This document shows positions 53,748 to 61,026 of a stretch of DNA of 64,000 nucleotides, one piece after another. How positions within the stretch are numbered: position 1 is the stretch's first letter; each line of letters begins with the position of its first letter. Source of the DNA: an uncultured Acidobacteriaceae bacterium (lineage in GTDB: Bacteria > Acidobacteriota > Terriglobia > Terriglobales > Acidobacteriaceae); assembly GCA_963778705.1 (NCBI GenBank), contig CAVZVM010000010.1, positions 68,241 through 132,240 on the forward strand, read 5' to 3'. The notes under the pieces were generated by a model. It was not told the origin of the DNA, ran no database searches, and was given only the letters and a program-made list of their open reading frames with translations. Made by a program: the position numbers and the translations under genes.

Positions 53748-56700
53748 ATGCCCGCCCTCAACCTCAAGCCCTCGCACAAACCGGTCAAGGACTACTACGC
53801 CAACCTCGAGCGCTTCGCGCAGGGCCGTTTCGACAAAGAAGGGAACATCCGCGGCGTCTTTGAAGCCCTCCTCAAGCACTGCGCCCGCCAATACGACTGG
53901 ACCCTCGTCCCCGAGTACTCCATTCCCCGCAAAGGCCGCAACCCCCTCAGCGTCGACGGCGCTCTCCTCGACGCCTTCAATCTTCCCCGTGGCTACTGGG
54001 AAGCCAAAGACGAAAAGGACTCCCTCGAAGTCGAGATGAAGAAGAAGTTCGAGGCCGGTTATCCCCGCTCCAACATCCTCTTCCAGCGCCCCACCAGGGC
54101 CCTCCTCTTTCAGGATGGCCGCATCGCATTCAACGACTCCATCGAAGAGCCGGAAAAACTCGTCGAAGTCCTCCGCCTCTTCTTCGAGTGGCGTCAGCCC
54201 GACCACGAAAGTTGGGACCGCGCCGTGTCGGAATTTGCAGACCGCATCCCCGACATCGCCAAAGGCGCAATGAAGCTCATCGATGAGGAGCGCAGGAAAA
54301 AGGGCGAATTTGTCGAGCGTTTCGCCGCCTTTGCCGACCTGTGCCGCGAGTCCATCAACCCCGATCTCAAAGACGAGGCCGTCGAGGAGATGCTCGTCCA
54401 GCACCTCCTCACCGAGCGCATTTTCCGCCGCATCTTCGACAATCCCGAATTCACCCGCCGCAACATCATCGCCGCCGAAATCGAGAAGGTCATCGACTCC
54501 CTCACCAGGCGCCACTTCAGCCGCGATGCCTTCCTCCGCGATCTCGACCCGTTCTACAAGGCGATAGAAGAGGCCGCCTCCACCACCGAGAGCTACTCAC
54601 AAAAGCAGGCATTTCTCAACAGCGTCTACGAGCGCTTCTTCCAGGGATTCGACCGCAAGCAGGCCGATACCCACGGCATCGTCTACACGCCGCAGCCCAT
54701 CGTCGACTTCATGGTGCGCAGCGTCGAAGAGATTCTCAAGTCCGAGTTCGGACGCAGCCTCAGCGACAAAGACGTCCATATCCTCGACCCCTTCGTCGGT
54801 ACCGGCAACTTCATCACCCGCGTCATGCAGGAGATCAAAACCAGCCGCCTGTCGCAAAAGTACAGAGAGGAACTGCACTGCAACGAGGTCATGCTGCTGC
54901 CCTACTACATCGCCAGCATGAATATCGAACACGCCTACCTTGACCGCACCGCAGAATACGAGCCCTTCGAAGGCATCTGCCTCGCAGACACTTTCGACAT
55001 GAGATCGCAGGCCACGATGTTTGCCGAAACAAACACGTTGCGAATCCGTCGCCAGCGCCTACAGCCGATTTTCGTGGTAATCGGCAATCCACCGTACAAC
55101 GTCGGTCAGGAAGACGAGAACGACAACAACAAAAATCGACGGTACGTGCAGGATGGCGGAGTCGACTTGCGAGTCGCAGAGACCTACGGCAAGTCGTCAT
55201 CGGCCGTAAACACCAGAGCTCTCGGAGATCCCTACATCAAAGCCTTCCGATGGGCCTCTGATCGAGTTAGCAGGTACGGGGTTGTTGCTTTCGTAAGCAA
55301 TAGTGGATTCCTAGACGGCCTTGCGACAGATGGTGTGCGTATGCACCTGCAACGCGACTTCGATGAGGTTTACATTCTCGACCTCGGCGGCAACGTCCGG
55401 AGGAACCCCAAGCTCTCGGGAACTACGCACAATGTCTTTGGAATCCAAGTCGGCGTCAGTATCAACATTTTCATCCGAAGAGACGTACCGGCAGAAAAGA
55501 GACAATCCAAGATCTTTTACGCCAGAACCGAAGAGTTCTGGACCCGCGGCCAGAAGGAATCATTCCTTGCAGAATCTCAGGCGATCTCCCGCATCCGTTG
55601 GTCTCGGATTGAACCGGATGCGAGGAACAACTGGCTAAGCGTGAGTGACGGTTCGGGTTTCTCAAATCTCATGCAGATCGCAGATGCAAAGGTTAAGAGC
55701 GGAGCCACACAGGACCGAGCAGTTTTCCAAGACTACAGCCGAGGAGCGGAAACAACTCGGGATGCATGGAATTACAACTTCTCAAGCACGACCCTCGGAG
55801 AGAACGCCCAGAGATTCATCTCGTTCTACAACTCCGAGCTTCGGCGGTGGCGTAAGAACAGAGCACCGGGCGACCGCATCGACTCGTTTCTGAGCCCGGA
55901 TCCCGCGAAGATTAAATGGTGTAGCAAGCTGAAGCAGTTGCTCGCAGCGGGCGTTGAGCTCACCTACGATGCAAAAGAAATTAGAAGAGCGATCTATCGC
56001 CCCTTCACATGCATGTCCCTCTACTTCGAGGACGGAGCGACCCACAGGAGAGGACGACTACCCCATTTCCTGCCAACGCAGAAGAGCGAAAAAGAAAACT
56101 GTCTGATTTGGGTTAAGGTGGGCTCCGACTGGCCGATGTTCGCGCTGGCAGCGGATCAAATTCCCGATCTGTTGCCTCAAGGCGGCTCACAGTGCTTTCC
56201 CCTCTACACCTACGACGAAGACGGCTCCAACCGCCGTGAAAACATCACCGATTGGGCGCTCGCCGAGTTCCGCTCCCACTATGGCAAGCAATCTATTACG
56301 AAGCTCGACATCTTCCACTACACCTACGCCCTGCTCCACCACCCCGAGTACCGCACCCGCTACGCTGCCAACCTCAAACGTGAACTGCCGCGCATTCCAT
56401 TCGCGCCCGATTTCACGGCCTACACCCGCATCGGCGCAGCAGCTGATGAAACTCCACATTGAATATGAGAAGCAGCCCGAGTATCGCTTGCAGAGGACCG
56501 AAACCGGCAAACTCGATTGGCGCGTCGAGAGCATGAAGCTCTCCAAAGACAAAACCCAGCTCCGCTACAACAGCTTCCTCACCTTGAGCGGCATCCCGCC
56601 AGAGGTCTACGAATATCGTCTTGGCAATCGCAGCGCCCTCGAATGGGTGATCGATCAATATCGCGTCTCAACCGACAAGCGCTCCGGCATCGTCAACGAC

Positions 56701-56841
56701 CCCAACCGCGCCGACGATCCCGAATACATCGTCCGCCTCATCGGCCAGGTCGTCACCGTCTCCCTCGAAACCGTCCGCCTCGTCCGCGAACTCGCCAAGC
56801 TCCCTCTGTTGGAAAACTCCCCTGCAGACCCACCGGTATGA
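53748..56841 (+). pseudogene. single-chain Type IIG-like restriction-modification enzyme (PD-ExK-like N-domain + gamma N6-adenine methyltransferase + Type ISP-like C-terminal specificity region), frameshifted near C-terminus
   Basis: N-terminal VDGAL...x13...YWEAKD (D...ExK). Methylase motif I is LDPFVGTGNF and motif IV is GNPPY (about 55085-55096). No Walker A or helicase motifs. ORF 53748..56462 continues in ORF 56236..56841 (+1 shift near 56425-56440: ...YTRIG-QQLMKLHIEYEKQPEY...). Confidence 0.8.
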
Positions 56842-56888
56842 ATCGGCTCTGAGGCTCGATCCGCACGACTCCATACTCTAAGTGCCGA

Positions 56889-56945
56889 AACGCCCCGGCG
56901 GGGCGTTGGGAATATAGCCCAGGACAAGCGAAGCGCAGTCCTGGG
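56889..56945. repeat. two perfect GC-rich hairpins downstream of the RM gene (possible terminator / REP-like element)
   Basis: AACGCCCC-GGC-GGGGCGTT at about 56889-56907 and CCCAGGAC-12 nt-GTCCTGGG at about 56918-56945. The hairpins are not followed by a clear T-run on the + strand. Confidence 0.4.
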
Positions 56946-57188
56946 AAGCAGATATAAGAGGGACCGCCGCCCCGTAGGGCGCGGCAGGAACGGGGTTCCT
57001 CAGCGCGAGCAACAGCGCGCCACGCCTGCTGGAATTGCTCCCTCTGAAACGCCCCGCTGCCTGGACGGCCAGTCCTTGCGAAGAATTACCCCTCTTTGGC
57101 GCATCATGGGGATATGAGGTTCTCCCGCCGCGCTTTCCGACTCCGTCGAGCGAACCCAACGGCAGTCCGTATGGTGGTCTGACCTCTG

Positions 57189-57211
57189 ACCCCACCCCCC
57201 TCCCCGTTTGC
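57189..57211. repeat. C-rich outer inverted repeat, left copy (ACCCCACCCCCCTCCCCGTTTGC)
   Basis: 19/23 identical to the reverse complement of 60116-60138. The sequence is low-complexity, so significance is modest. Confidence 0.3.
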
Positions 57212-57217
57212 AAAGTA

Positions 57218-57236
57218 GGGCAATTATATAGTTGAC
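57218..57236. repeat. AT-rich near-palindromic motif GGGCAATTATATAGTTGAC, left copy
   Basis: Matches GGCAAGTATATATTTGCCC at 59865-59883 (15/19 direct, 16/19 as an inverted repeat). Both copies lie just upstream of inward-facing genes. Confidence 0.35.
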
Positions 57237-57260
57237 AAATCAAGCTACACATCCTATTCT
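57232..57260 (+). promoter_or_regulatory. sigma70-like promoter for the transposase (TTGACA-17 nt-TATTCT), likely leaderless
   Basis: TTGACA at 57232-57237 and TATTCT at 57255-57260. The ATG lies 6 nt downstream of the -10 element. Confidence 0.3.
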
Positions 57261-57266
57261 TAACAC

Positions 57267-58231
57267 ATGAAAGCACCTAAGACTCTTCAAGATGCCATCA
57301 TTTACTTCTCGGATGCGGATAACTGCCTTCGCTATATGGTGGATCACCGCTGGCCCGAAGGCGTCGTATGCCCTACCTGTGGCCGCGATGATGTGACCTA
57401 TCTGGAGAGCCAGAAGAAATGGCAGTGCAAGAGCGCCACGCGAAACGGCAATTCACCGCGAAGGTCGGAACCATCTTCGAGGATTCCCCTCTGGGCCTTG
57501 AGAAGTGGCTTCCCGCTGTGTGGCTCATTGCGACCGCAAAGAACGGAATCAGCTCCTACGAGATCGCTCGCGTCTTTGGGCGTCACTCAGAAGACTGCTT
57601 GGTTCATGCTTCACCGCATCCGGCTTGCCATGCAGACGGTTCCTGATGAAGCTCGGCGGCAATGGTGGCGAAGTCGAAGTAGACGAAACCTTCATCGGCG
57701 GCAAGGCCCGCAACATGCACATGAGCATGAACGCGATCGCCGGATCACCGGCACTGGCGGCAAAGACAAGACCGCTGTCATGGGCATTCTGGAGCGCGGC
57801 GGACGAAGTTCGCGCCAGGTGGTTCCCGACCGCGGAAAGAGACCTGTGCAACCCGAAGTTCGCAAGCATGTCGAGGCTGGCGCGGCGCTCTACACCGATG
57901 CACTGCATGTCCTACAAGGACTGGACAACGAGTACATCCACCAAGTCATCGATCACGCCGTGCGATACGTGAACGGACGCGTTCACACCAACGGCATGGA
58001 GAACTTCTGGTCGCTGCTCAAGCGCGGATCTAAATGGCACCTATGTGAGCGTCGAACCGTTTCATCTTTTCCGTTACCTCGATGAGCAAATATTCCGTTA
58101 CAACAACCGCGCCACCAAAGACAACCCGTTGAACGATCCTGACCGTTTCTCCGCCGTCGCTATCCCAAGTGACTGGAAAGCGCCTCACCTATGCCGAGGT
58201 CACCGGCAAGGTGGGAGAAACGATTAACTAA
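57267..58231 (+). mobile_element. IS1595-family (ISXO2-like) transposase, multiply frameshifted pseudogene
   Basis: N-terminal zinc ribbon CPTCG...C. GTIFEDSPLGLEKWLPAVWLIATAKNGISSYEIAR, VTQKTAWFMLHRIR, EVDETFIGGK, VHTNGMENFWSLLKRG and FRYNNR are spread over all three frames with at least 6 shifts, both +1 and -1. The reconstructed stop is at about 58229-58231. Confidence 0.85.
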
Positions 58232-58521
58232 TCCTTCGCGGCGGAAGCGGGGGCGGAAACCTCAAATTGAAGGTTGAACCCAGCATTCGGCAACAATCCC
58301 TTAAGCTCCTCCATACCTTTCATGAAGTTGGTGATCGTCAGTTCGTAGGTTCCCCCTTCAAAGCGAACCCACGGTTTACCGCACTTCGGGCATTTGAACA
58401 GGGAATAAGCCAGATTTGAAGCCAAGGGCAGCGAGAGCGAGGCTCCGCACTCCTTGCAGTCGCAACGAACTGACAGTATGTCCGACATTTCGATGTAATG
58501 TTTCGTCTGGCTCGTCATCAT
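58228..58521 (-). CDS. hypothetical zinc-ribbon protein (97 aa; CDCKEC...CPKC)
   Basis: Last gene of the overlap-coupled operon, with an ATGA overlap to the upstream gene. Two Cys pairs are present. Its stop abuts or overlaps the transposase stop. Confidence 0.55.
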   Translation of the reverse strand: MMTSQTKHYIEMSDILSVRCDCKECGASLSLPLASNLAYSLFKCPKCGKPWVRFEGGTYELTITNFMKGMEELKGLLPNAGFNLQFEVSAPASAAKD

Positions 58522-58814
58522 GCCACGCTCTTTCCCGACTTCGATAGAAGCACGATGCCGCCTATTAAGACAATGCAGGCAACGATTCCGAGCATCGCGT
58601 CGTATCGTTCCGCAGATTCGATCTCCTTTGCGTGCATCAGGGCTGCATGGGCGGCTGGGAAGTCTGTCCCTGCGTTGATGTCATTCATCCTGTTCTCAAA
58701 CGCTATAGCCTCTTGGTTCACGCGCCTATCTGATTCGTTTTGCAAATAGTCACGCCCAACCCACGCCCCTACGACGAGAGCCAAAAGCAACGCCAATATG
58801 CCACCTATTTTCAC
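58518..58814 (-). CDS. hypothetical small membrane protein (98 aa, N- and C-terminal TM helices)
   Basis: Hydrophobic segments IGGILALLLALVVGAWV and LGIVACIVLIGGIVLL flank a polar loop of about 50 aa. ATGA overlaps on both sides. Confidence 0.55.
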   Translation of the reverse strand: MKIGGILALLLALVVGAWVGRDYLQNESDRRVNQEAIAFENRMNDINAGTDFPAAHAALMHAKEIESAERYDAMLGIVACIVLIGGIVLLSKSGKSVA

Positions 58815-58996
58815 GATTGAGGCCTCGGCTGTCCTTCAGCGGGCTTTCTCCCCCGCTTGCGTTCGCCTCGCGCCTCGCGCTCCGCCTTGCTCGTCTCTAT
58901 CTCCGCATCCACTTCCGCTTTCACCTTCGCTGGATCGGCGCGGAGAATCGTACTCATTGCCTTGTCGAACGTGGAATATTCATTCGACCTTCTCAT
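58811..58996 (-). CDS. hypothetical highly charged 61-aa protein
   Basis: Start chosen at MRRSNEY, giving an ATGA overlap with the DUF3800 stop. Lys/Arg/Glu-rich C-terminal tail (KAEREARGERKRGRKP). Confidence 0.45.
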   Translation of the reverse strand: MRRSNEYSTFDKAMSTILRADPAKVKAEVDAEIETSKAEREARGERKRGRKPAEGQPRPQS

Positions 58997-59829
58997 AGCC
59001 TTCGCGCGATTCGCGCCTCCTCGCATATGATTTTCATTCCAGCCTCGGTTATAAGCGCCTTCTCCAATGGAATACCGACGAGCGCCCCAAACGAAGCGCG
59101 AAAGTCCCGGTCGCCTCTCTTTATCAGTTCCATGTCTACCGCCAGTTTCCGTGCTTCATATGCCAAGTAGTCGGCGGCTTGAAGTTGGATCAGACCCTTA
59201 CGCCCATCTGGCCACTTATTGCAGGGCTTCATATCTCTACTTGGCTTAAATGACGGGTCTGGAAGACTCGAAGGCCTGGCGGTCATTGCCTTAATTAGAC
59301 CTCCTTTGTCTGGCCCTCCATCTTCAAAGACATACTCCATGTCGAGAGGCATCGTTGTCTTCCTGCGCCAAGTATTAGCCAATGCAACGCACAAACGTCC
59401 CGCCAGCGCATAGGGGCTACTGAAAACATCTCGAACTCGATATTTTGTATCCACCAAATCGAAAATCTCGTGAACCACCATCGAGATAAACATGCACTGA
59501 GTCGTCGCTTTTATGATTTCTGCAGCATCTCGCATGAAACTTGCCCGCGTCGCGCTCATCCGCTCGTCTGCCCACTTGGCGAAAGGACCTTTTGACTGCG
59601 AATACTCCTTCATGTGGAAATAAGGCACGTCGTATTTCGCGAGGAATATCTTCCAATCAAATTCGAATCGTTCCCACTGATTTACCGAAGCGACGAATCC
59701 GCAAACACAAGTCAGACCCAAATGGTCGCCTCCCGACTCGTCAAAATAGCAGGTCAACATGGCGAAGCGTGCCTCAGTGGAATAGCTCCTTCCGAGGAGC
59801 GCGCGGGCAAGATGCTGCAATACGCTCAC
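58993..59829 (-). CDS. DUF3800 domain-containing protein
   Basis: CYFDESGG near the N-terminus and LQAADYLAYE near the C-terminus match DUF3800 hallmarks recalled from memory. The start is either the GTG at 59829 or the ATG at 59760. Confidence 0.7.
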   Translation of the reverse strand: MSVLQHLARALLGRSYSTEARFAMLTCYFDESGGDHLGLTCVCGFVASVNQWERFEFDWKIFLAKYDVPYFHMKEYSQSKGPFAKWADERMSATRASFMRDAAEIIKATTQCMFISMVVHEIFDLVDTKYRVRDVFSSPYALAGRLCVALANTWRRKTTMPLDMEYVFEDGGPDKGGLIKAMTARPSSLPDPSFKPSRDMKPCNKWPDGRKGLIQLQAADYLAYEARKLAVDMELIKRGDRDFRASFGALVGIPLEKALITEAGMKIICEEARIARRL

Positions 59830-59864
59830 CGCTCACCCCCATCATGCGCTGACAGGGTTGATTC

Positions 59865-59883
59865 GGCAAGTATATATTTGCCC
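59865..59883. repeat. AT-rich palindromic motif GGCAAGTATATATTTGCCC, right copy
   Basis: GGCAA-N9-TTGCC palindrome, about 35 nt upstream of the DUF3800 ORF. Partner of the motif at 57218-57236. Confidence 0.35.
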
Positions 59884-59925
59884 AAAGTAGTCAATAACCA
59901 TCGTGCGCAAACTTCCTCGCGCCTT

Positions 59926-60114
59926 GCAGAATATTTCGCTGTGAGCGATGCGTCTCGCCGACACATCCGCGAATCTCTGCAATTGCCAGACGCTGGCGGA
60001 CGGCTGAAACCTGCTAAGTCCTGTGCCGAGAGATATTTCGCCATAAGCGGCTGATTCCATTAAGGTTATCGTAAGTTACTGATAAACTAAGTCCAATGGG
60101 CAGAGATATTTAGC
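59926..60114. repeat. three direct copies of a 14-15-nt motif (GCAGA[G]ATATTT[C/A]GC)
   Basis: Copies at about 59926-59939 (GCAGAATATTTCGC), 60027-60041 (CGAGAGATATTTCGC) and 60100-60114 (GCAGAGATATTTAGC). All lie in the non-coding stretch upstream of the operon. Confidence 0.45.
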
Positions 60115-60115
60115 A

Positions 60116-60138
60116 GAAAACGGGGTGGGGGAGGGGGT
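60116..60138. repeat. G-rich outer inverted repeat, right copy (GAAAACGGGGTGGGGGAGGGGGT)
   Basis: Its reverse complement matches 57189-57211 at 19/23 positions. The adjacent GGGGGTACCCCC palindrome may also act as the cox3 terminator. Confidence 0.3.
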
Positions 60139-60169
60139 ACCCCCGCGAGACGGACCGAACCTCAGGCGC

Positions 60170-60934
60170 TCATTGCCCGACCGCAAGCACCGCCAGCAGC
60201 ACCATCCACGCCAGTCCCATGGTGTGCCAGTACCAGGCCGTCGCATCCACGGCAATCTGCCGCAACTCCACACGCTTGAAGAGATTGACCGCTGTCAGGC
60301 AAACAATCAGCGCCCCAATGCCGACGACAAGATGCGCCGCGTGCAATCCCGTAATGATGTAAAAGAAATAGCTCGCCGGCGTCGACCACCGATCGAAGGC
60401 AAATCCCTGCGCCGTCAGCTGCTTCCATGCCGTCCACTGGCCGACGAGAAAGAGCGTGCCGAGCGCCAGCGTTCCGCCAACCCACGGCAGCGTACGCCGC
60501 AGCGCTGGCTTGCCCAACCCGAGCCACTCTTCCATCACATCGATTTCCCTGAAGATGTTGTGCCGCGCGAACTCCATCGTCAAACTGCTCAGCACCAGCA
60601 CAGCAGTATTAAGGAAGATGATGGGCGGCAACAGGATGGGGCGCCAGTCGCCGATCTGCTCATGCGATCGCGGATCCAGATGCGTTCCGGCCTGCCGTGC
60701 GAAAAACAGCACCACCAGCATGGCAAAAAACATCATGTCGCCGGCGAGCCCGAAGAACACAAAGAATCGAATGCGATGAAGCAGTTCGCGCGGACCGCGT
60801 CGCGCATGTCTCCAATCGTCGTCGCCGCCACCGCCACCGCCGCCCGTCGGTCGCCGGTCAACAGGCGGTTTCCCGCCGATTCCTGGTTCCTTCCGTTCCG
60901 TTTCCGCCGGGGAGTGCGTAAAGGTCGCGGGCAT
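60170..60934 (-). CDS. cytochrome c oxidase subunit III family protein
   Basis: Start set at MPATFTH. TM pattern and YWHTMGLAWMVL / ITGLHAAHLVVG motifs fit heme-copper oxidase subunit III. An N-terminal G7 tract is present. Confidence 0.85.
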   Translation of the reverse strand: MPATFTHSPAETERKEPGIGGKPPVDRRPTGGGGGGGDDDWRHARRGPRELLHRIRFFVFFGLAGDMMFFAMLVVLFFARQAGTHLDPRSHEQIGDWRPILLPPIIFLNTAVLVLSSLTMEFARHNIFREIDVMEEWLGLGKPALRRTLPWVGGTLALGTLFLVGQWTAWKQLTAQGFAFDRWSTPASYFFYIITGLHAAHLVVGIGALIVCLTAVNLFKRVELRQIAVDATAWYWHTMGLAWMVLLAVLAVGQ

Positions 60935-61026
60935 CACAAGCCTCTGTGAGGAAGAGCATACTCCACTTTCCCTTGGACGCACGGCGCAAGAAGCGGTTGC
61001 TCCTCACTTAAAGGGTTGGAAATCTC

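Follow-up and report, generated by a model that had tools for sequence, protein, structure and literature searches.

Four consecutive minus-strand open reading frames (ORFs), g1 to g4, are chained by 4-nt start/stop overlaps in the 64,000-nt stretch of DNA analyzed here (hereafter, the window), which belongs to contig CAVZVM010000010.1 of an uncultured Acidobacteriaceae bacterium, and they raise the question of whether they act as one system. The original prediction, made from the sequence alone, held that they do: obligate co-translation would join a DUF3800 protein, a small basic protein, a protein with two transmembrane helices and a zinc-ribbon protein into a candidate defence or abortive-infection system beside an insertion sequence (IS). 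We found that the module does not lie beside the IS; it lies inside it, and the IS is its vehicle. With high confidence, the four ORFs can be described as the cargo carried by a transporter IS (tIS), an insertion sequence with passenger genes on board; this one is 2.66 kb long, belongs to the IS1595 family and is built on a fixed backbone with two cargo slots. The proposal that slot 1, occupied by g1 in the window, holds a defence-type effector is more tentative, and we give it slightly less than an even chance. The explanation as a whole, structure and function together, we regard as moderately probable.

Inverted repeats enclosed all four minus-strand genes together with a convergent IS1595-family transposase gene. 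Copies of the repeat, with the consensus GG(G/T)(C/A)AAWTATATACTTGMCGAATCA, bordered the element at both its cargo end and its transposase end, and the same repeat was found in approximately 40 related loci; the window element listed in Table 1 follows from defining the element ends as GGNAAWTATAT. Perfect 8-bp duplications were found in 22 elements, that of the window included, the other 21 being at unrelated target sequences. In Pfam, the window transposase (57267-58085) matched PF12762 (ISXO2-like catalytic domain, 2.4e-18) and PF12760 (N-terminal zinc ribbon, 3.7e-10). Related elements measured 1,930-3,197 bp. Two loci on one contig, L001 and L032, shared a 2,168-bp unit (g1-like gene, g2, and transposase) at 99.4% identity, and a single element was seen in several genomic contexts and orientations. 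The duplication size of the IS1595 family is 8 bp, and passenger-carrying "transporter IS" elements are on record in IS66 as well as in IS1595 (for the latter, Siguier, Gagnevin & Chandler 2009; TnCentral). The window element is an IS1595-family tIS, with all testable defining features present: a zinc ribbon at the N terminus of its DDE transposase, terminal repeats that are short, the 8-bp duplication, and passengers inside. The literature searched gave no account of DUF3800 or HEPN genes as cargo in IS1595 elements, or of a clade that combines a constant small backbone gene with two set places for cargo, one of them always filled and alternating among DUF3800, HEPN-like, and a third family. 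We take the element ends (GGCAATTAT) to fit the ISNwi1-group end consensus.

Table 1 Coordinates of the transporter IS, its ends, and its genes (window positions)
Feature	Position	Strand	Remarks
Whole tIS	57219-59882		2,664 bp; delimited by repeats and 8-bp duplication
Target-site duplication, left copy (CAAAGTAG)	57211-57218		Same as 59883-59890; immediately outside terminal repeats
Target-site duplication, right copy (CAAAGTAG)	59883-59890		Perfect 8-bp match to left copy
Terminal inverted repeat, transposase side (GGCAATTATATAGTTGACAAATCAA)	57219-57243	+	22/26 matches to other end (local alignment)
Terminal inverted repeat, cargo side	59858-59882	-	-35-like TTGCCG inside, upstream of g1
IS1595-family DDE transposase gene	57267-58231	+	Assigned by Pfam; at least four frame breaks; convergent on cargo genes
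g1, apparent DUF3800-family RNase-H-fold protein, slot-1 cassette	58993-59829	-	278 aa, GTG start
g2, backbone protein with AT-hook-like motif	58811-58996	-	61 aa
g3, protein with two transmembrane helices, rare slot-2 cargo	58518-58814	-	98 aa, GTG start
g4, zinc-ribbon protein, optional slot-2 cargo	58228-58521	-	97 aa

The four chained ORFs themselves were recovered as predicted, and the overlaps in part: the g1/g2 (58993-58996) and g3/g4 (58518-58521) junctions read ATGA, whereas the g2/g3 junction (58811-58814) reads GTGA because g3 starts with GTG. The start of the 61-aa g2 is shared by 31 homologues that begin at the same position, and the N-terminal extension given by the long g1 start (LEHLGRS.LG.RYS) was kept in many homologues. 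An independent assembly from another sequencing run (L069) was 100% identical over 58187-59912; the cargo sequence is therefore no assembly artefact. The G+C content of the module (0.50-0.56) was lower than that of its flanks (0.58-0.63), in line with the original prediction. Direct scans of g1-g4 against Pfam, PADLOC, NCBIfam, and PHROGs gave nothing significant; g4 returned only weak zinc-ribbon matches (HypA, 4e-4; phrog_4875, 7.7e-5; Lar-type, 6e-3).

Which of these genes belong together was read from 49 genome loci and 80 metagenome loci found with the g2 family (approximately 130 related loci). The repeats, the transposase, and g2 were the constant parts. Conservation of the quartet as a unit, on which the four-gene proposal had been staked beforehand, was not found in the related loci. 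Slot 1, the interval between one repeat and g2, varied in content; it held one nuclease-type gene, the stop of which usually overlapped the g2 start. In approximately 40 informative loci the repeat lay 650-1,016 nt upstream of g2, and slot 1 is therefore never empty. Its main occupants were DUF3800-like genes (approximately 30 loci, on the same evidence as for g1), a HEPN-like family (20 loci, invariant WRNxxMH), and a third family (15 loci, invariant GD[LI]D[GN]xxK...DD). The 4-nt overlap with g2 was present in 13 of 16 HEPN-like, 12 of 23 DUF3800-like, and two of eight third-family genes. Unrelated proteins took the place of g1 in roughly half of the g2-bearing elements. At the DNA level, the resemblance between elements with different cassettes was limited to g2, the transposase, and the 38-nt repeat, and upstream of slot 1 the 38-nt repeat block was the sole DNA conserved between them. 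Different cassettes even accompanied transposases that were 97-98% identical (for example, L092/L093 vs L097). A few sister elements had decayed or broken slot-1 genes.

Within the HEPN-like family, R271 and H276 (the Rx4H motif in WRNxxMH) were invariant; comparison of this family with PDB profiles gave no match. For the third family, a "RusA-like" label based on motif resemblance was dropped, as no Pfam or PDB profile matched. One further slot-1 gene (L136:2761-3549) matched the PADLOC model PD-T7-4 as a RAZR homologue (E 6.4e-6); the element that carries it is intact, with the duplication AGCTTAAA. PD-T7-4 is RAZR, a validated single-gene abortive-infection zinc-finger HEPN RNase (PMC13017515).

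A phage origin was considered and rejected: among 2.9 million viral contigs there was one match, itself carrying the same transposon type. On that contig (L155, IMG/VR, 70 kb), a transposase accompanies a HEPN-like cassette, and a g1-like gene that lacks a transposase lies 2 kb away. In the plasmid collection, the nearest IS1595 transposases were at most 43% identical and the layouts differed. On the Methylobacterium oryzae plasmid pMOC1 (L157), three genes on the same strand come after a distant IS1595 transposase: one hypothetical, one for a VapC (PIN) toxin, and a 62-aa ORF. The arrangement may represent a further tIS with a nuclease on board, in a different layout.

The g1 homologues numbered 285, mostly from Acidobacteriota metagenome-assembled genomes. 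Among 34 aligned relatives, 18 matched PF12686 (DUF3800) at E ≤ 0.01 (best 1.1e-6), and D30 and E31 (DE motif), D170, and Q217 and D220 (QxxD motif) were invariant across all 34 sequences. Structural modelling, suggested as a check in the original prediction, gave a confident RNase-H fold for g1 (AF2; predicted local distance difference test [pLDDT] 91.7) and, for g4, a poor model (pLDDT 57.6) that was not usable for fold search. The best Foldseek match of the g1 model was a phage DUF3800 protein (E 2.4e-7, TM-scores 0.55/0.62), and archaeal RNase HII was matched as well (E 3.4e-4). On account of the Pfam matches of its relatives, the invariant motifs, and the structural matches, g1 looks like a DUF3800-family RNase-H-fold protein with an apparently intact acidic active site; the family assignment made earlier holds through these lines and not through a direct Pfam match.

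Genes resembling g1 were not confined to the element type of the window. Full-length examples without a g2-like ORF occurred at six loci (L012, L014, L016, L018, L019, and L021), and some g1-like genes stood alone, with neither g2 nor a transposase present. Of the 49 genome loci, 20 had a convergent IS1595-family transposase inside the 6-kb flanks, in 16 of them 0.2-1.3 kb downstream of the g1-like gene; the transposase-linked loci included distant relatives from Rhizobium, Caulobacteraceae, Nitrospira, and Pyrinomonadaceae. At L007, L009, and L010, the IS1595 transposase that adjoins the g1-like gene is divergent (33-37% identical to the reference), and the g1-like gene is followed by another small basic protein (MTRTKKLRPRKE...PITRDAF..LL.RA), which is not g2. 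The plasmid collection yielded a single distant g1 match (L059, Rhizobium tropici plasmid pRtrCIAT899a, 21% identity). The DUF3800 gene of L059 comes directly after an ABC-three-component system (ABC-3C) and before Tn7-like tniB/tniQ.

The basic, Lys/Arg/Glu-rich composition reported for g2 in the original prediction was borne out. The N-terminal part of the protein is helical and is followed by an AT-hook-like GERKRGRKP. The family comprised 95 clusters of approximately 60-aa proteins (60-87% identity), with K47, R48, G49, and R50 invariant in the alignment and the canonical AT-hook core GRGRPPK in sister variants. That g2 is a real protein is supported by its dN/dS of approximately 0.22. A convergent transposase followed g2 in 70 of the 80 metagenome loci, nine of the other 10 being contigs that end within 750 bases, and the median gap between the two was 66 nt. 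The identity of g2 tracked that of the transposase (Spearman 0.41) and did not depend on slot-1 type (61.1% vs 60.5%, p = 0.81); no column of the g2 alignment was associated with slot-1 type. The protein belongs to the backbone and is probably a regulator that binds DNA at the repeats, which are AT-rich and promoter-bearing.

Slot 2, bounded by g2 and by the transposase 3′-end, was occupied in approximately 30 of 70 elements. The zinc ribbon described for g4 was confirmed in five invariant cysteines (C20, C22, C25, C44, and C47). The g4 family formed nine clusters in 5.8 billion proteins and was present in approximately 10 of the 80 metagenome loci, with every slot-1 type, and no gene ever separated it from the transposase 3′-end; in L002 and L003 it came directly after g2. 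Hydrophobic stretches at both ends of g3, conserved within its family, agree with the transmembrane helix predicted at each end. This family had approximately 30 representatives in 1.84 billion proteins. No g3 homologue was found in the 49 genome loci, and the 80 metagenome loci contained one, on the opposite strand in L086; among tIS copies g3 was otherwise present only in the near-identical copies of the window element (L069 and L070). One g3 homologue had a prophage-like context. Further occupants of slot 2 were a 184-aa Cys-rich protein, secreted proteins, and others. Where slot 2 was empty, g2 ended in the peptide tail S.PAS.AKD, whereas where it was filled the same tail ended g4 (window, L002, and L003) or another last ORF (L005); g4 of the window thus carries the 'SAPASAAKD' tail of the ancestral g2. 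From this distribution, slot-2 insertions occur within g2, near its 3′-end, and the inserted gene takes over the tail.

In L005 (6001-7433), a g1-like gene and g2 are joined by an unrelated 111-aa protein with two transmembrane helices and a captured tail. Immediately after it comes a repeat-like sequence, and a transposase is lacking. The derivative may be a non-autonomous, cargo-only element.

Because the quartet is not conserved, g1 is replaced, and g3 and g4 are optional, the layout of sensor, adaptor, and membrane effector seen in the original prediction is an accident of cargo stacking. The defence or abortive-infection flavour of that prediction is retained for g1 only, and the four-part system is given up. 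As we picture it, each slot-1 gene would by itself provide a conflict effector that degrades nucleic acids, most likely a nuclease of defence or abortive infection, and the genes would be interchangeable, with cassettes exchanged by recombination between the conserved repeat and g2. The g2 protein would be made together with the effector, would probably bind the AT-rich repeats and promoters, and would set the expression of the effector operon and perhaps that of the transposase too; g3 and g4 would be add-on passengers and not required parts. We favour conflict effectors in slot 1 because two of the three main families (DUF3800 and HEPN-like) have nuclease motifs or fold, because DUF3800 and HEPN-like proteins serve as effectors in retrons and CRISPR accessory modules, because one cassette is a RAZR homologue, and because turnover is fast, as is typical of conflict loci.

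Known systems resemble the window locus in part. The DUF3800 fold is the effector of retron type VII (PMC7736814) and an accessory (TPR-DUF3800) of Cas12a2/Cas12a3 and type VI-F CRISPR loci, and DUF3800 genes adjoin 11 unexplained RNA motifs (PMC5737381). With these systems g1 shares the RNase H/H2-like fold, the N-terminal DE, and the C-terminal QxxD, but the window locus has no reverse transcriptase, noncoding RNA (ncRNA), TPR, or cas genes. Specifically, no reverse-transcriptase domain was found in the neighbours, no retron or DUF3800 RNA in 56000-61000 (an Rfam scan of this interval for the 11 associated motifs returned none), and no PADLOC retron match; the compact elements are too small for a large ncRNA. 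RAZR/PD-T7-4 has a homologue in the same slot of L136 and shares the single-gene nuclease format, but g1 of the window is not homologous to it and the link is one of position only. P2/P4 hot-spots and integron cassettes likewise combine conserved flanks with a variable, rapidly exchanged payload of small streamlined genes, whereas here the vehicle is a 2-3 kb IS and the payload is narrow (three main families) and coupled to a backbone gene.

Several observations weigh against this explanation. Neither g1 nor the other three window proteins matched any PADLOC 2.0 family at E ≤ 1, and g1 itself had no DUF3800 match in Pfam at E ≤ 0.1. Pfam matches of the HEPN-like family were weak (HEPN, 0.089; DUF4145, 0.17), and no fold was supported for the third family by Pfam or PDB profiles. 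Only one cassette in approximately 65 is a homologue of a validated defence gene. The promoter on the g1 side is weak, reaching 8/12 of the consensus and falling under the scan threshold, and the proposed attachment of g2 to the repeats through an AT-hook is read from a short motif only. Finally, a slot that is never empty and a conserved translational coupling to g2 also fit a role in serving the transposon.

This last point leads to the alternative that the slot-1 nuclease and g2 are transposition helpers, which we consider unlikely. The g2 protein would bend or mark the AT-rich ends, and the nuclease would process a transposition intermediate (second-strand or branched-DNA cleavage) or cut empty donor sites for retention, a role that can be likened to TnsA in Tn7 or TnpB in IS200/IS605. 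Tight coupling to g2 in all three slot-1 types and the co-variation of g2 with the transposase count in favour of such a role. So does the presence of DUF3800-like genes beside distant IS1595 transposases (33-37% identity, vs 50-67% in the g2-bearing clade) without a recognisable g2, as in L007, L009, L010, L039, and L043, and the RNase-H fold does include structure-specific DNA nucleases. However, most IS1595-family elements are known to transpose by the transposase alone, and a mechanistic cofactor would not be expected to be swapped among transposases of 97-98% identity or to come in as many as three or four folds that are unrelated and include RNase-type HEPN and RAZR homologues; some g1-like genes, moreover, have neither g2 nor a transposase with them. 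A broader form, in which the nuclease slot and g2 make up a transposon-serving module and are a protein-only, fold-swappable counterpart of TnpB/IscB in IS200/IS605, is quite doubtful; any of several nuclease folds, controlled by a repeat-binding AT-hook protein, would act for the element itself and could help it to persist or spread, either by processing intermediates or by cleaving rival or empty sites. Like TnpB/IscB of IS200/IS605 and IS607, the slot-1 gene is a near-obligatory companion of the transposase in a minimal IS; unlike them, it leaves no room for, and gives no sign of, a guide RNA, its nuclease fold is interchangeable, and its cassette turnover is high.

A slot-1 toxin with g2 as its labile antidote, stabilising the transposon in the genome by addiction (toxin-antitoxin), would account for the tight overlap with the nuclease first and the small partner second, as in rnlAB or higBA, and for g2 never occurring without an upstream slot-1 gene. 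Hyper-promiscuous antitoxin domains are known (PMC10440598), but neither residues nor identity of g2 carry any signal of which of the three unrelated folds accompanies it (p = 0.81). The full-length g1-like genes that lack g2, at the six loci named above, and the strongly basic character and DNA-binding-type motif of g2 also tell against an antidote, and we rate addiction as rather improbable. The obligate four-component defence system of the original prediction keeps very little probability: all four ORFs are translationally coupled in the window copy, L069 has the identical quartet, and L070 is near-identical over part of g2, g3, g4, and the transposase 3′-end, but no element other than this near-identical copy has the quartet. 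Elsewhere g3 is missing, and prophage-like surroundings are recorded for its family; g4 is optional, combines with any slot-1 type, and directly follows g2 in two loci. Equally remote is the view that the cargo consists of neutral hitch-hikers carried by chance without selected function. The window transposase is frameshifted, the element may be decaying, and some sister elements have broken slot-1 genes, but g2 is under purifying selection (the dN/dS given above), catalytic residues are invariant in g1 and the HEPN-like family, and the cargo is 100% identical between samples where the adjacent transposase DNA differs at 15 sites.

Three or four "hypothetical" families and an IS in soil and peat Acidobacteriota thus turn out to make up one modular mobile element, and annotation of such genes should be corrected from neighbours to cargo. 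If slot 1 does hold defence effectors, these 2-3 kb transposons would be among the smallest known carriers and shufflers of single-gene immune nucleases, and the stand-alone DUF3800, the new HEPN-like family, and the third family would be candidates for testing. If the module instead serves the transposon, it would represent a new kind of accessory-nuclease relationship in IS. Either way, the strict backbone-and-slot layout offers clean experimental constructs.

The ends of the element also carry promoter-like sequence. A -35-like TTGAC was present on each of the two terminal inverted repeats, and on the transposase side a promoter-like TTGACA-17-TATTCT (57232-57260) scored 10/12 in the promoter scan. 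An outward-pointing promoter-like site, CTGACA-18-TATATT (10/12), was seen at the cargo-side repeat (59849-59878, plus strand). No terminator was found between the convergent operons, so that antisense interference with the transposase is possible. The transposase stop (58229-58231) overlaps the g4 stop. By tblastn, the transposase of the window runs in frame 1, in frame 2 from 58030, and in frame 3 from 58157, with two scrambled internal stretches besides, whereas in the 98.6% identical L070 copy the 3′ frame is intact and ends ...KVGETIN*. These frame breaks are either decay (real mutations) or assembly indels.

A C-rich inverted pair (57189-57209 and 60118-60138) was tried as the transposon ends and rejected, the 8-bp duplication and the family-wide repeat setting them at 57219 and 59882. 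The pair (ACCCCACCCCCCTCCCCGTTT), 18/21 complementary, was found nowhere else in the window. Once the transposon is removed, it encloses a 278-bp segment, and this segment may be a miniature inverted-repeat transposable element-like sequence that hosts the insertion. The right part of the sequence so bounded (59891-60138) was 75% similar to the flank of the L103/L104 transposon, and comparable C-rich tracts precede L001 and L032. Between identical flanking genes, the transposon was found in opposite orientations across samples (L050/L051 vs L052/L054), and L152 and L153 likewise had opposite orientations, with half-duplications swapped. These flips suggest inversions by recombination between inverted copies or repeats.

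The accessory island in which the module had been placed proved to be small: it holds only the transposon and a frameshifted Type ISP-like methylase/specificity gene, among ordinary chromosomal genes. This restriction-modification gene (53748-56841, plus strand) encodes a coupler, an N6 methylase, and a C-terminal specificity domain, which a frameshift near 56236-56462 breaks in two; neither a helicase nor a nuclease part was found in the ORF. Between it and the transposon sits a sub-threshold Rfam match to the Acido-Lenti-1 small RNA (56891-56945, minus strand; 24.7 bits vs a gathering threshold of 37, E 0.016).

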